Shown here: one piece after another, positions 48,495 through 53,459 of the stretch | Layout of the letters: every line of letters starts with the position of its first letter | Position numbering within the stretch: position 1 is the first letter of the stretch | From: Candidatus Latescibacterota bacterium | GTDB taxonomy: Bacteria > Latescibacterota > UBA2968 > UBA8231 | Direction: 5' to 3' | Length of the DNA: 64,000 nucleotides | NCBI GenBank assembly: GCA_965223905.1 | Contig: CBDCXV010000011.1 | Coordinates: 608,001 to 672,000 of the forward strand | The notes under the pieces: generated by a model | Seen by the model: only the letters and a program-made list of their open reading frames with translations | Database searches by the model: none | Told to the model about the DNA's origin: nothing | Made by a program: the position numbers and the translations under genes

Positions 48495-49880
48495 TCAGAA
48501 CTCAGGCTCCTGCTCTCTGCGGTACCCAGGAGCGAGGTTCTCGAAGGAGGCGCAGGCGGCGTTCCACATCAGCTCCACCGAGTCGGTGGGCCCGTTGCGC
48601 TGCTTGCCAATGATGATCTCTGCAGTCCCCTCCTGGCTGCCCGCCTCGTCCGATTTGACGTACAGGTCGGGGCGGTAGATGAACATCACGACGTCGGCGT
48701 CCTGCTCGAGCGAGCCGCTCTCCCTCAGGTCGGACAGCTGCGGCCGCCCCCCCGTGCGCGCCTCGGGTGCCCGCGACAGTTGCGACAGGGCGAGCACCGG
48801 TATGTCGAGCTCCTTGGCGAGCCCCTTCAACCCGCGCGAGATCTGCGCCACCTCCTGCTCGCGGCTGTTGACGTTCACGTGGGTTCCCATCAGCTGCAGG
48901 TAGTCTATGACGATCAGGTCGACGCCGTGCTCGCGCTTCAGGCGCCGGGCCTTGGCCCGCGTCTCGAGGATGGTGATGCCCGGGGTATCGTCGACGTAGA
49001 TCGGGGCCTGGGCCAACTTGCCTACCTGCCTCGTCAGGCGGAGCCAGTCGTCGTCGCGCAGGCGGCCGGTTCTCAGCTTGTGCAGATCGACCCGGGTCTC
49101 GAGGCAGAGCAGCCGCTGCGCGACCTGCTGCTTGGACATCTCGAGGCTGAAGATCGCCACCCCGGCCCCGGTCTCGACCGCGGCGTTGCGGGCCATGCCC
49201 AGGGCCAGGGCCGTCTTGCCGACGCTCGGACGCGCCGCGAGGATGACGAGATCCCCCGCCTGCAGGCCGGATGTCAGGTCGTTGAGATCGGAAAAGCCGG
49301 TGTCGACGCCGGAGACCGCGGAGTCGCGGTTGTGGGCCCGCTCAATCTGCTCGTACGTGTCCTCCAGGACCGCCTTGATGCTCTCGAAGCCGCTCGTAAG
49401 CCGCCTTTCCGAGAGGGAGAAGATCCGCTGCTCTGCCCAGTCGAGGAGCTCGTACACCTCGGTCCGGCCCTCGAAGGCCCGGTCGGAAACCAGCGCCGCG
49501 GTTTCGATCAGGGAGCGGCTCAGTCCCCTGTCGAGGACGATGTTTGCGTGGTGAACGATGTTGGCCGCGGTGGCGACCTCGGCCGCCAGGGTCGACAGGT
49601 AGACCAGGCCTCCCACCTCCTCGAGCTCGCCCCGTTTCTTGAGCTCCTCGCTGACGGTGAGCTGGTCGATCCCCTCGCTGCGATCGAAGAGGGAGATCAT
49701 GGCGGAGAAGATCCTGGCGTGGGGATTGTGGTAGAAGCAGCCCTCGTCGAGAATCTCGATGGCGCGCCCGACCGCCCGCTGATCGATCAGCATGGCGCCG
49801 ATGACCGCCTGCTCGACGTCGACGGCCTGCGGCGGCAGGCGGTCGAGGCCGCGGCCGTTCTCCGGCCTCCCCTGGTTCAC
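48495..49880 (-). CDS. dnaB: Replicative DNA helicase
   Basis: PPQAVDVEQAVIGAML, ILAARPSVGKT, FSLEMS, IDYLQLM, LSQLSR, SDLRESGSLEQDAD, KQRNGP. Confidence 0.97.
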   Translation of the reverse strand: MNQGRPENGRGLDRLPPQAVDVEQAVIGAMLIDQRAVGRAIEILDEGCFYHNPHARIFSAMISLFDRSEGIDQLTVSEELKKRGELEEVGGLVYLSTLAAEVATAANIVHHANIVLDRGLSRSLIETAALVSDRAFEGRTEVYELLDWAEQRIFSLSERRLTSGFESIKAVLEDTYEQIERAHNRDSAVSGVDTGFSDLNDLTSGLQAGDLVILAARPSVGKTALALGMARNAAVETGAGVAIFSLEMSKQQVAQRLLCLETRVDLHKLRTGRLRDDDWLRLTRQVGKLAQAPIYVDDTPGITILETRAKARRLKREHGVDLIVIDYLQLMGTHVNVNSREQEVAQISRGLKGLAKELDIPVLALSQLSRAPEARTGGRPQLSDLRESGSLEQDADVVMFIYRPDLYVKSDEAGSQEGTAEIIIGKQRNGPTDSVELMWNAACASFENLAPGYRREQEPEF

Positions 49881-49905
49881 GGCGATTCTCCCCTTTCCGG
49901 AACGG

Positions 49906-50637
49906 TCACAGCTCCACTCCGTCGTACTGGCGCCGGAGCCACTTGATGTCCTCCCACGTCTGCCGTTTGAAACCGGCATTGCGCAGCAGGGCGGCAGGGT
50001 GATAGGTGACGATCACGGGAATCCCCTCGTACTGGTGCAGGGTGCGGCGCAGCTCCCCAAGCGGCGATGTCGTCTTGAGCAGCGCCTGCGAGGCGACGCG
50101 CCCGAGGGCGCAGATGATGCGCGGCTGCACGATCTCTATCTGCCGCTTGAGGTAGGGCTCGCACTGGTCGACCTCCTCGGGCAGGGGATCGCGGTTGTTC
50201 GGAGGCCGGCACTTCAGCACGTTGCAGATGTAGACGTCCTCTCGCCGCAGCCGCATCGCCTCGATGATCCGGGTCAGCAGTCCGCCCGCCTCCCCGACGA
50301 ACGGCAGCCCCTGCCGGTCCTCCTCGGCCCCCGGGGCCTCCCCGACGAACATGATGCCGGCCTCGGGATTCCCCGAGCCGAACACGAAATTCTGCCGCGA
50401 ATGCCCCAGCGGACAGGCGGTGCAGTTGCAGATCTCCGAGTGGAAGGCGTCGAGCACGGCGGCGGCGCCTGCCTGCCCGACTTCCCCTCCCGTCGCTTCC
50501 GGGAGGGGTTCTGCATCTCCCAGGCCGGCGGGGAGAACGAAGTCCGGCCCCTCGAATGCCACGAGGTCGTCGAGGAACCGCGCCGCAAGGCCGAGGGAAT
50601 CGCCGCCGCTGCCAGGGCGCTCTTCTGTCGCTGCCAT
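49906..50637 (-). CDS. Uracil-DNA glycosylase family 4 (Fe-S)
   Basis: [46 protein letters not shown]. Confidence 0.92.
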
Positions 50638-50699
50638 CGAGATGAAGTTCGGTGTGGGGGTGGTTTCAGGACGGAAAATGAGGGGGGTGCAGCACCCTG

Positions 50700-51938
50700 T
50701 CAACCGGATTTCCGGCGGCGCGCAAGCAGCTCGCGAGCGCGGTCGAGCAGCCGGTCGGCCACCTCCATTTTGCTCATCTTCGGAAGCGCCTCTTCCCTGC
50801 CGTCGGCATCGATCAGGGTTACGACATTGGTGTCGACGGCGAACCCGGCCCCCTCCTCCCGGAGGTTGTTGAGGGCGATGAGGTCGCTCTTCTTGCGGGC
50901 GAGCTTGGCGCGCGCCCGGGCGCTGCCATCCTCTGTCTCCATGGCGAAGGAGACGACCACGCGATTCCCCTTGCTCGCCCCCAGCTCCGCGGCGATGTCC
51001 GGGTTCGGGACCAGCTCCAGGGCGATCCGGCCGGGCGCCCGCTTGATCTTGTCTTCGGAATACCCCGCGGCGCGATAGTCGGCTACGGCCGCGGCCATGA
51101 CGGCGATGTCGGCCTCCCGGAACCACTCCCGGGCCACGTCCAGCATCTCCACGGCGCTGCGCACCTGGGCCACCTGCGCCTTCCCCGGAGGCTGGAGGTC
51201 CGTCGGTCCGCTGATAAGCTTCACCGCGGCGCCCCGGCGGACAGCCCTGGCGGCAACGGCGTAGCCCATCTTTCCGGTCGAGCGGTTGCTGATGAAGCGG
51301 ACCGGATCGAGATCCTCACAGGTAGGTCCCGCGGTGACCAGCACGGTGAGCCCTGCAAGGTCCCCTGACTCGCCCGGCGCCCGTCTCCGGTGCGTCTCCA
51401 GGAAATCCTCCACCTGACCGACTACCGCCTCCGGGCTCGCCATGCGCCCCTTGCCGTGCGCCCCGGAAGCCAGCTCCCCTTCCTCCGGATCGATCCAGCC
51501 GACTCCTTGCTGCCGCAGGAGGCGGGCGTTGCGCTGCACGTGGGGGTTTTCGAGCATCCCCTCTTCCATCGCCGGGGCGAGCAGGACAGGCGCCGCAGCC
51601 GTCAGCAGCACGGAAGAGAGCAGGTCGTCGCCGATGCCGTTGGCCATCTTCCCGATGGTGTTGGCCGTCGCCGGGGCGATCAGCAGCAGCTCCGCCCACT
51701 CACCGAGGCCGACGTGGAGGACGGGGAACTCGTCGCTGCGTTCGAACAGATCGATGTGAACGGCGTGGCGGGTCACGACCTCGAGGGTGGTCGCGGTGAC
51801 GAAACGGGCCGCGGCCGCGGTCATGGCGGCGCGAACCTCGGCCCCGGAGGTGACCAGCAGTCTGGCGATCAGGGGTGTCTTGTAAGCGGCAATGCCGCCG
51901 CTTACCCCGAGAAGGATCCTGCGTCCCTCGAGTCCCAT
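50700..51938 (-). CDS. coaBC: Bifunctional phosphopantothenoylcysteine decarboxylase / phosphopantothenate-cysteine ligase
   Basis: [59 protein letters not shown]. Confidence 0.96.
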
Positions 51939-51942
51939 CGTT

Positions 51943-52500
51943 TCACCCGCTGCCGGGGAGGCGCTGGGCGATGCGGTCGGCCACCTGCCGCGCCGCATCC
52001 TTTCCCGAATCGATAACGAGGTCGTAGATCGACAGATCGCGGATATCGATGCCGTGGTGATCGCGATAGCGGGTCCGCTCCGACTGCTCCCTGTGCACCA
52101 TCTCCTGCAGCGCCTCCTCGACGGACTGGCCGTCGCGGTTGCCGACGCGGTCGGCCCGCACCGCCATGTCGGCGAATATCCACACCTTCAGCGCCGGAAG
52201 CTGCGCCCGCACGACCATCCAGCCGGTGAGGCGGCCTTCGAGTATCATCCCCCCGCAGCGGGTGCGGACCGCCTCGGTCATGCGGGCGTCGAGGCCGCGG
52301 TCGAGTTCGGGATCGCACTCGGCGCGGCGGCAGAAGACGGCCATGGATTCCCCGGCTTCCGCGGCCATCTCCCGGAACGTCCTGCCGGCGTCGAGGTGCC
52401 GCCATCCGGTGCGCCTTCCCAGGAGCTCGCACACGGTGCTGGTGCCGGAGCCGGGAAACCCCCCTATGGTCACGACGTCAATCGCCTTGGTACAGGCCAT
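51943..52500 (-). CDS. cmk: Archaeal-type (d)CMP kinase family protein
   Basis: VTIGGFPGSGTST, AGRTFREMA, ELDRGLD, ILEGRLTGW, KVWIFA...RADRV..RD, RY...GIDIRDLSIYDLVIDS. This is the short archaeal-type Cmk pattern, not Gmk. Confidence 0.8.
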   Translation of the reverse strand: MACTKAIDVVTIGGFPGSGTSTVCELLGRRTGWRHLDAGRTFREMAAEAGESMAVFCRRAECDPELDRGLDARMTEAVRTRCGGMILEGRLTGWMVVRAQLPALKVWIFADMAVRADRVGNRDGQSVEEALQEMVHREQSERTRYRDHHGIDIRDLSIYDLVIDSGKDAARQVADRIAQRLPGSG

Positions 52501-52511
52501 GGTCGCCGCGG

Positions 52512-53405
52512 TCACGCCAGGTTCTGGACCTGCTCCCGCATCCGCTCGATCTCCTCCTTGACCGCCAGCACCTCGTGTACGATCTCCGTTGCAGTCGCCT
52601 TCGAGCCGATGGTGTTGGCCTCCCGGTGCATCTCCTGAAGCAGGAAATTGAGGCGCTTGCCGACGTCGCCGCCGGCCTTCAGGGTTTCCGCGAACTGCCC
52701 GGTGTGGCTGCGGAAGCGCACGAGCTCTTCGGCTACGTCGCTCCGTTCCGCCATCAGCACCACTTCCGTCACGAGGCGGTCCTCGTCGATCGCGCCCGGC
52801 TCGAGCAGGGAGGCCACCTTTTCGCGCAGGCGGGTCAGATGCTTCTCCCTGCAGCCGGCAGCCAGGACCTCCATCTCCCCCTGCCGTTTTTTCAGGGAAT
52901 CGACGCGGGTGCGCAGATCCGCGGCGAGGGCCTGCCCCTCCGTCATCCTCATCTCGTTGCATTCCCGAAGTGCCTCTTCGACGGCCGCCAGCACCAGGGG
53001 TGCAGCACTATCCGCATCGAGTTGGACCGGGTCGTTGCGAAACACGCCCGGCATCCCCGCCACCGATCCGAGGGAAATCGCCGGTTCGATACCCTCGGCC
53101 TCGGCGAGCCGTCTCAACCCGGCGATGTATCGCCTCGCCGCCTCCAGGTCGAGTACCGGTCCGGCGTCGTCGACCCCCGGGGATTCCTCGAGCTCGACGA
53201 GAACCGTCACCTTGCCCCGCGCCAGGACCTCCTGAACGCGCTCGCCGATGGCGCTCTCCATGTCGCGGAGTGGAGCGGGACAGCGAACCTGGACGTCGAG
53301 AAATCGCCCGTTGAGCGAGCGCACCGTCGCCCTAACCGCGGCACCGGGCCCTTCCGCCCTGCCGCTGCCGAAGCCTGTCATGCTGATGATTTTTCCGCAA
53401 CTCAT
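52512..53405 (-). CDS. yicC: YicC/YloC family endoribonuclease
   Basis: ISMTGFG, RSLNGRFLD, RGKV, DVAEELVRFRSH, GKRLNFLLQEMHREANTIGSK, REQVQN. Confidence 0.93.
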   Translation of the reverse strand: MSCGKIISMTGFGSGRAEGPGAAVRATVRSLNGRFLDVQVRCPAPLRDMESAIGERVQEVLARGKVTVLVELEESPGVDDAGPVLDLEAARRYIAGLRRLAEAEGIEPAISLGSVAGMPGVFRNDPVQLDADSAAPLVLAAVEEALRECNEMRMTEGQALAADLRTRVDSLKKRQGEMEVLAAGCREKHLTRLREKVASLLEPGAIDEDRLVTEVVLMAERSDVAEELVRFRSHTGQFAETLKAGGDVGKRLNFLLQEMHREANTIGSKATATEIVHEVLAVKEEIERMREQVQNLA

Positions 53406-53459
53406 GCCATTGACCTCGGTAGAAAACCGGCGCCAGGCCCGCAAACTCCCGGGCCGGGG

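Follow-up and report, generated by a model that had tools for sequence, protein, structure and literature searches.

Phosphorylation of guanosine monophosphate (GMP) to guanosine diphosphate (GDP) is an essential step in the supply of the guanosine and deoxyguanosine triphosphates, GTP and dGTP. The gene of the guanylate kinase Gmk commonly lies beside rpoZ; the accessible part of one survey gives gmk and rpoZ as adjacent in 18,302 of 23,517 genomes and the order gmk-rpoZ-coaBC for several species (PMC9973325). For archaea, the accessible part of a comparative study from 2014 states that the guanylate kinase gene is unidentified and favors AK6-type adenylate kinases (PMC4177761), while the corresponding part of PMC10248530 covers Thermotoga enzymes only. 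A full-text search, with most subscription journals outside its reach, yielded no paper in which an archaeal gene for a GMP kinase is identified, no characterized cytidylate kinase (Cmk) of the archaeal type, and no report of a gmk displacement in Latescibacterota. Here we analyze a stretch of 64,000 nucleotides from a Candidatus Latescibacterota bacterium (assembly GCA_965223905.1, contig CBDCXV010000011.1, positions 608,001 to 672,000; referred to as the window), in which a gene encoding a kinase of the archaeal-type Cmk family occupies the position between yicC and coaBC that is held by gmk in sister families. Judged from its sequence and distribution, this gene probably came from archaea and took the place of gmk within the cluster, and its product would accordingly be the GMP kinase of the clade.

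The gmk locus and its occupants across the phylum

To compare the locus with that of related bacteria, the gene orders around gmk were determined in the sister families f2-f4. All six loci consisted of yicC, gmk, a short omega-like open reading frame (ORF) and coaBC. In the window and in 10 of 10 further loci from the window's own family, f1, the order was yicC, kinase and coaBC with nothing in between, which indicates a replacement in place that removed both gmk and rpoZ. The archaeal-type kinase and Gmk are both P-loop nucleoside-monophosphate (NMP) kinases and their genes agree in slot, strand and close packing between yicC and coaBC; however, the kinase has no detectable sequence similarity to the Gmk models. 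The original prediction, which regarded yicC-gmk-rpoZ-coaBC as a common bacterial arrangement, thus agrees with the six sister loci and, with respect to the pair gmk-rpoZ, with the accessible part of the survey cited above (PMC9973325).

The genome harboring the window comprises 7.92 Mb in 11 contigs, is 93.6% complete and has a contamination estimate of 5.1%. No gmk was found in it, as TIGR03263 had no hits at E≤0.001 and PF00625 reached an E-value of 0.51 at best; the search recovered gmk in all ten control bacteria and in none of four control archaea. A genuine bacterial cmk is present (G000:C1:1022123-1022755, 193.4 bits), as are adk (217 bits), a gene resembling guaA, encoding GMP synthase (239 bits), and an IMPDH-like gene (341 bits). 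With the latter two, the organism appears to make GMP and therefore must phosphorylate it.

The distribution of the three kinase genes was then assessed in 168 genomes of the phylum, 76 from the window's family (its own genome included) and 92 from 13 other families, using thresholds of E≤1e-15 for gmk, the TIGR02173 cut-off for the archaeal-type kinase and E≤1e-25 with TIGR00017 for bacterial cmk. Within the window's family, gmk was found in 0/76 genomes, the archaeal-type kinase in 74/76 and bacterial cmk in 74/76. The corresponding numbers in the other families were 89/92 (86 of them over the cut-off), 0/92 and 89/92, and the gmk model scored 173-238 bits there. Across the 168 genomes gmk and the archaeal-type kinase were mutually exclusive, and no intermediate genome possessing both was encountered. 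The two family members without the kinase are only 75% and 81% complete and are split into 770 and 810 contigs. As 19 of the 76 genomes consist of a single contig, the lack of gmk cannot be put down to gaps in the assemblies. Two 21-bit gmk matches within the family were dismissed as P-loop noise. The same pattern was obtained with a smaller sample of 41 genomes, 25 from the window's family and 16 from outside. These results bear out two expectations of the original prediction, namely that gmk would be absent while a normal cmk is present, and that the kinase would be anti-correlated with gmk. They also support, together with the identity of the slot and the archaeal affinity described below, its proposal of a non-orthologous displacement in situ, within which the GMP substrate is the inferred part.

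A second Cmk-like gene of the window's genome belongs to PF13189 and has no assigned function (C11:323178-323798, 142.5 bits, about 205 residues, outside the window). This paralogue occurs in 22/25 genomes of the family and in 15/16 of the others, the sixteenth containing it split in two pieces. As it occurs both in genomes that have gmk and in genomes that lack it, it was ruled out as the replacement GMP kinase. By marker counting, the single-contig genomes of the family are 91-96% complete with 4-13% contamination, which suggests that marker absences specific to the lineage, possibly including gmk and rpoZ, and duplications bias the completeness estimates in this family.

Family, archaeal affinity and active site of the kinase

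The kinase matched the NCBIfam model TIGR02173 (cyt_kin_arch) over residues 14-183 with 145.2 bits (cut-off 102.1, E 1.8e-42) and the Pfam model PF13189 (Cytidylate_kin2) with 71.4 bits (E 1.4e-19). By sequence, its membership in the archaeal-type (d)CMP kinase family TIGR02173 (CMP, cytidine monophosphate; dCMP, its deoxy form) is far beyond chance, and the archaeal-type Cmk motifs noted in the original prediction are thereby confirmed. In contrast, the bacterial model TIGR00017 reached 32.5 bits, far under its cut-off of 135.55, with a match confined to residues 14-52. An AlphaFold2 (AF2) model was obtained with a mean predicted local distance difference test (pLDDT) score of 94.9 and a predicted template-modeling (pTM) score of 0.89. 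It displays the predicted architecture of an NMP kinase, in which a P-loop core is combined with a helical part for NMP binding and an arginine-bearing lid. All Foldseek matches of this model were P-loop small-molecule kinases, mostly NMP kinases. The best structural matches were 3hdt and 3fdi, putative kinases of unknown function that belong to the same Pfam family, PF13189 (query-normalized TM-score 0.72-0.74, root-mean-square deviation 2.6-2.8 Å, identity 16-18%). The bacterial Cmk structures 2cmk, 1kdo and 3akd followed with E-values of 1.5e-7 to 6e-7 and query-normalized TM-scores of 0.59-0.62. Their P-loop region and overall NMP-kinase fold are shared by the kinase, which is, however, about 40 residues shorter and remains below the TIGR00017 cut-off. 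Gmk structures were not among the matches listed down to rank 49, which were Cmk-, Adk- or shikimate kinase-like, and no solved structure was found for any member of the archaeal-type family. The matches represent generic kinase folds and give no hint on base recognition or substrate.

The best 120 database homologues of the kinase are 49-95% identical to it, and those with a name belong to Latescibacterota, with one from Gemmatimonadota. The next nearest named clusters are archaeal (Poseidoniales, Thermoplasmata, Methanosarcina, Wukongarchaeota and Hecatella), and the neighbors of the kinase in the Atlas are Thermoplasmatota. A scan of species genomes with an alignment of forms carrying threonine in the P-loop returned 469 relatives, and the best 80 of these were 79 archaeal records and one from Latescibacterota. 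The names 'Myxococcota' and 'Nitriliruptoraceae' appeared on contigs of 3-5.6 kb, all within one cluster at 90% identity, and seem to stem from binning noise. In a quick IQ-TREE phylogeny of 102 rows, the bacterial sequences formed their own group or groups outside a branch of 83 rows, supported by a Shimodaira-Hasegawa-like approximate likelihood ratio (SH-aLRT) of 94. This branch contained 75 named archaeal records and eight unnamed representatives, and the tree does not resolve the donor lineage. On the sequence level the affinity of the kinase is archaeal, with Poseidoniales and Thermoplasmata as its nearest named relatives. In an alignment of 131 family rows, which also included closer homologues, the kinase was 29-48% identical to the archaeal-type representatives, and it resembles them in length and in the conserved glycine, arginine and aspartate residues. 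Unlike these relatives, it is found in a bacterium, one that also has a normal bacterial cmk. The locus differs as well: in three of the four archaeal loci examined, the gene is part of a housekeeping cluster, secY-(adk)-EMC3/TMCO1-kinase-cbf5, and not of a gmk slot.

Among 251 genomes of Thermoplasmatota, the kinase family was detected in 231 at E≤1e-15, 200 of these over the cut-off, and in 230 of the 231 it was represented by a single match. In addition to the four control archaea, gmk was not found in 5/5 archaeal genomes, and in the Thermoplasmatota 0/251 had a match over the cut-off. The statement of the original prediction that canonical Gmk is generally absent from archaea is thus in line with all three sets. 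Archaea that have gained a bacterial gmk and lost the kinase family were not encountered, as no searched archaeon had a gmk over the cut-off.

The lysine of the Walker-A motif is normally essential in P-loop kinases. The P-loop of the kinase reads G19-F-P-G22-S-G24-T25-S-T27, and this motif, GFPGSGTST, departs from the Walker-A consensus GxxGxGK[ST], since Thr25 (codon ACC, 52441-52443) stands at the lysine position. The P-loop GSGTST without the usual lysine had been pointed out in the original prediction; it is real, but it is not special to the clade, threonine being present at this position in about half of the archaeal family. Within the window's family, threonine was present in 10/10 orthologues. 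The query and its best 120 homologues had threonine in 119 of 121 sequences, lysine in one, and the remaining sequence was truncated at the N-terminus. Among 149 representatives of the family at 50% identity (P0122-P0270), 61 had threonine, 70 lysine, one arginine and one serine, while 16 showed no readable motif. Threonine and lysine forms were interspersed on a FastTree phylogeny of 131 rows, requiring at least 17 changes, and the threonine-type P-loop also occurred in the cluster that holds the Methanosarcina barkeri protein named KCY_METBF. As nearly all Thermoplasmatota having the family possess one match, the threonine forms must serve as the only copy. The archaeal 'Cmk' thus seems, from its sequences, to be a P-loop kinase family indifferent to the canonical lysine.

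Apart from this position, G19, G22, G24, T27, G44, F47, R48, A51, D72, D76, R95, R120, R123, R127, R142, R149, Y150 and Y164 are conserved throughout 120 sequences of the type found in the window's family and 117 of the archaeal type, with R120, R123 and R127 representing the lid arginines. Only four columns, W38, N42, L106 and H154, are specific to the clade. To judge from these residues, the active site looks intact despite Thr25.

Some family members had unusual domain compositions. The metagenomic representatives P0151, P0222 and P0268 (374-379 residues) consist of two Cmk-like kinase domains in tandem, and P0222 combines a lysine P-loop (GVSGSGKST) with a serine P-loop (GDTGAGSST). P0124 (C-terminus of YicC and kinase), P0150 (kinase and N-terminus of CoaBC) and P0174 look like gene calls across packed neighbors. 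None of the fused or tandem forms indicates a substrate.

Neighboring genes, omega subunit and expression

The genes around the kinase are compiled in Table 1. The original prediction had described the order yicC-kinase-coaBC-UDG-dnaB (UDG, uracil-DNA glycosylase) as tightly packed, which is corroborated by the family models and the measured spacers. The kinase frame extends from a GTG at 52515, overlapped by the stop codon of yicC, the gene directly upstream, to a TGA at 51943-51945 and encodes 190 residues. An alternative start at an ATG at 52500 would result in 185 residues, the length of the closest database homologues. The ATG of coaBC follows the kinase stop codon after a gap of 4 nucleotides. 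The start of the UDG gene is uncertain, the candidates being an ATG at 50637 and a TTG at 50703 that overlaps the coaBC stop. Its open frame (49906-51126, minus strand) reaches some 140-220 codons beyond the glycosylase domain on the upstream side and into the 3' end of coaBC, and either start leaves an N-terminal extension of about 60-90 residues without a family match. Start candidates for dnaB are an ATG at 49979 and a GTG at 49880.

Table 1. Features of the kinase locus, with positions counted from the first letter of the window.
Feature	Position	Strand	Basis
Archaeal-type Cmk-family NMP kinase, proposed GMP kinase of the clade	51943..52515	minus	TIGR02173, PF13189
P-loop of the kinase	52435..52461	minus	translated sequence
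yicC/yloC-family endoribonuclease	52512..53444	minus	TIGR00255 219.5 bits; PF03755 + PF08340
coaBC, phosphopantothenoylcysteine decarboxylase/synthetase	50700..51938	minus	TIGR00521 400.3 bits
Family-4 uracil-DNA glycosylase (UDG)	49906..50703	minus	TIGR00758 211 bits; PF03167
dnaB, replicative helicase	48495..49979	minus	TIGR00665 540.1 bits

With respect to rpoZ, the original prediction that the gene is missing from the locus holds for the slot in the window and in the ten further loci of the family, but a simple loss is not what was found, as a weak, unlinked omega-like ORF occurs in the family. This omega/Rpb6-like ORF of 74 residues is located at G000:C1:13320-13541, with a second copy at G000:C9:24905-25126. 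It scored 23.5 bits against PF01192 (RNA_pol_Rpb6), below the cut-off of 26, and had neither an NCBIfam match nor a BLASTP alignment to the rpoZ product of a sister family. Used as a query, it matched 23/25 genomes within the family and 0/16 outside it. The rpoZ model, conversely, produced weak matches beside gmk in 12/16 genomes outside the family and one doubtful match (19 bits) among the 25 genomes within it. The omega subunit of this family has either been replaced or diverged strongly, and the swap of gmk may have been accompanied by a second replacement, represented by the 74-residue ORF. The two copies are part of a 3.1-kb stretch that is present twice at 97.6% identity in opposite orientation (G000:C1:11859-15002 and G000:C9:23444-26587) and also includes an adenosylhomocysteinase-like ORF, named from a look at its translation, and one neighboring ORF. 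This repeat may stem from a genuine duplication, from strain heterogeneity or from redundancy in the assembly.

Contigs at least 95% alike over part of the kinase gene were present in four metatranscriptome libraries, all from one study and labeled as sponge metagenome. In each of the four, one contig bridged the junction of yicC and the kinase gene. The depth was low, at 2-5, and no contig from these libraries covered the junction of kinase and coaBC or positions 51457-51986. This is a weak hint that the kinase gene is expressed; the contigs are no proof of a single transcript, and DNA carry-over is possible.

Proposed role of the kinase, alternatives and significance

We propose that an ancestor of the window's family acquired a gene of the archaeal 'Cmk' family from archaea, and that this gene replaced gmk together with the adjacent rpoZ within yicC-gmk-rpoZ-coaBC. 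The product would be an active NMP kinase, competent despite Thr25, and would carry out the essential reaction that follows GuaB and GuaA and is performed by Gmk in other bacteria, while CMP phosphorylation would be left to the retained bacterial-type Cmk. We consider this the probable course of events for the clade. The wider proposal, that the whole archaeal 'cytidylate kinase' family is misnamed and is in fact the apparently missing archaeal enzyme for GMP, acting on GMP or on both CMP and GMP, is more tentative, and we rate its chances as somewhat short of even.

Several observations weigh against a role in GMP phosphorylation or limit its support. The family is named (d)CMP kinase by every source, the nearest solved structures with a known function are CMP kinases and not Gmk, and neither TIGR03263 nor PF00625 was among the Pfam and NCBIfam matches of the kinase at E≤0.01. 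Its Walker-A lysine is replaced by threonine. The guaA-like and IMPDH-like matches, from which GMP synthesis was deduced, are under their equivalog cut-offs. Furthermore, the complementarity of gmk and the kinase traces to one event in one clade, with an effective sample size of 1, so that other genes gained at the same node could share it. Among the best 80 of the 469 relatives, no further bacterial lineage showed this swap.

As a first alternative, the kinase might be the CMP/dCMP kinase of its annotation, redundant with the bacterial Cmk or specialized beside it, with GMP handled by an unrecognized enzyme such as a broad Adk or another P-loop kinase, and with the position in the gmk slot being a by-product of an insertion or deletion event. 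TIGR02173 is labeled an equivalog for (d)CMP kinase and its members are named cytidylate kinase, the Foldseek matches of known function are CMP kinases (3akd, 2cmk, 1kdo), and adk is present in the genome. The TIGR02173 description itself reportedly calls the members only 'believed' to be cytidylate kinases and mentions spirochaetes, and none of the papers found in the full-text search gives a measured CMP kinase activity for an archaeal member. In addition, gmk is essential in the pathway, yet no Gmk-like sequence occurs in any of the 76 genomes of the family. As bacterial cmk is kept in 74 of them, a second CMP kinase would be surplus, and the archaeal-type kinase is the only kinase found with a distribution opposite to that of gmk, which does not apply to the PF13189 paralogue. 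A function restricted to CMP and dCMP therefore appears unlikely to us. Somewhat less probable still is a broad-specificity NMP kinase acting on CMP, GMP and perhaps others, which first coexisted with gmk and only later became the one enzyme for GMP, the archaeal relatives being mainly CMP kinases with a side activity on GMP. The small number of clade-specific substitutions, only four, would fit the exploitation of such a latent activity, and a promiscuous P-loop NMP kinase has been argued to cover GMP in archaea, although AK6 is favored in the accessible part of that study (PMC4177761). However, this possibility is a variant of the proposed displacement rather than exclusive of it, and a genome retaining both genes is missing from the 168.

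Thr25 in place of the Walker-A lysine might also mark a catalytically weak or inactive pseudo-kinase that acts as a nucleotide-binding regulator. We regard this as very improbable, as threonine occurs in 61 of the 149 representatives, interspersed with lysine forms and also in the KCY_METBF cluster, as the threonine forms must serve as the only copy in the Thermoplasmatota sample, and as all other conserved residues, seven arginines included, are kept. That gmk is present in the family but was missed, due to incomplete assembly or a too diverged gene, draws on the 93.6% completeness of the window's genome and can practically be dismissed: the gene is lacking from all genomes of the family including the 19 single contigs, the same model performs well in the other families, and the ancestral gmk position is taken by the kinase, 4 nucleotides from coaBC.

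Displacement of gmk by the archaeal-type kinase thus remains the reading that we favor for this clade. The missing gmk may also explain why closed genomes of the family reach 91-96% completeness, provided that this gene is counted as a marker. A clade of bacteria with large genomes that has lost gmk and kept cmk bears on the gap in archaeal guanine nucleotide synthesis, and the kinase may in addition turn out to be the enzyme for GMP that has long appeared to be missing from archaea. If the archaeal family is indeed misnamed, the transfer into the gmk slot, with conserved residues barely changed, would amount to a natural complementation experiment that reveals its function, and the family would be one of P-loop kinases that work equally well with threonine or lysine at the Walker-A position. 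Should the kinase prove to phosphorylate GMP, re-annotation would be required for thousands of archaeal genes and for these bacterial ones, a pathway hole would be filled in metabolic models of archaea, and a P-loop family tolerating the loss of the Walker-A lysine would provide a useful case for enzymology.

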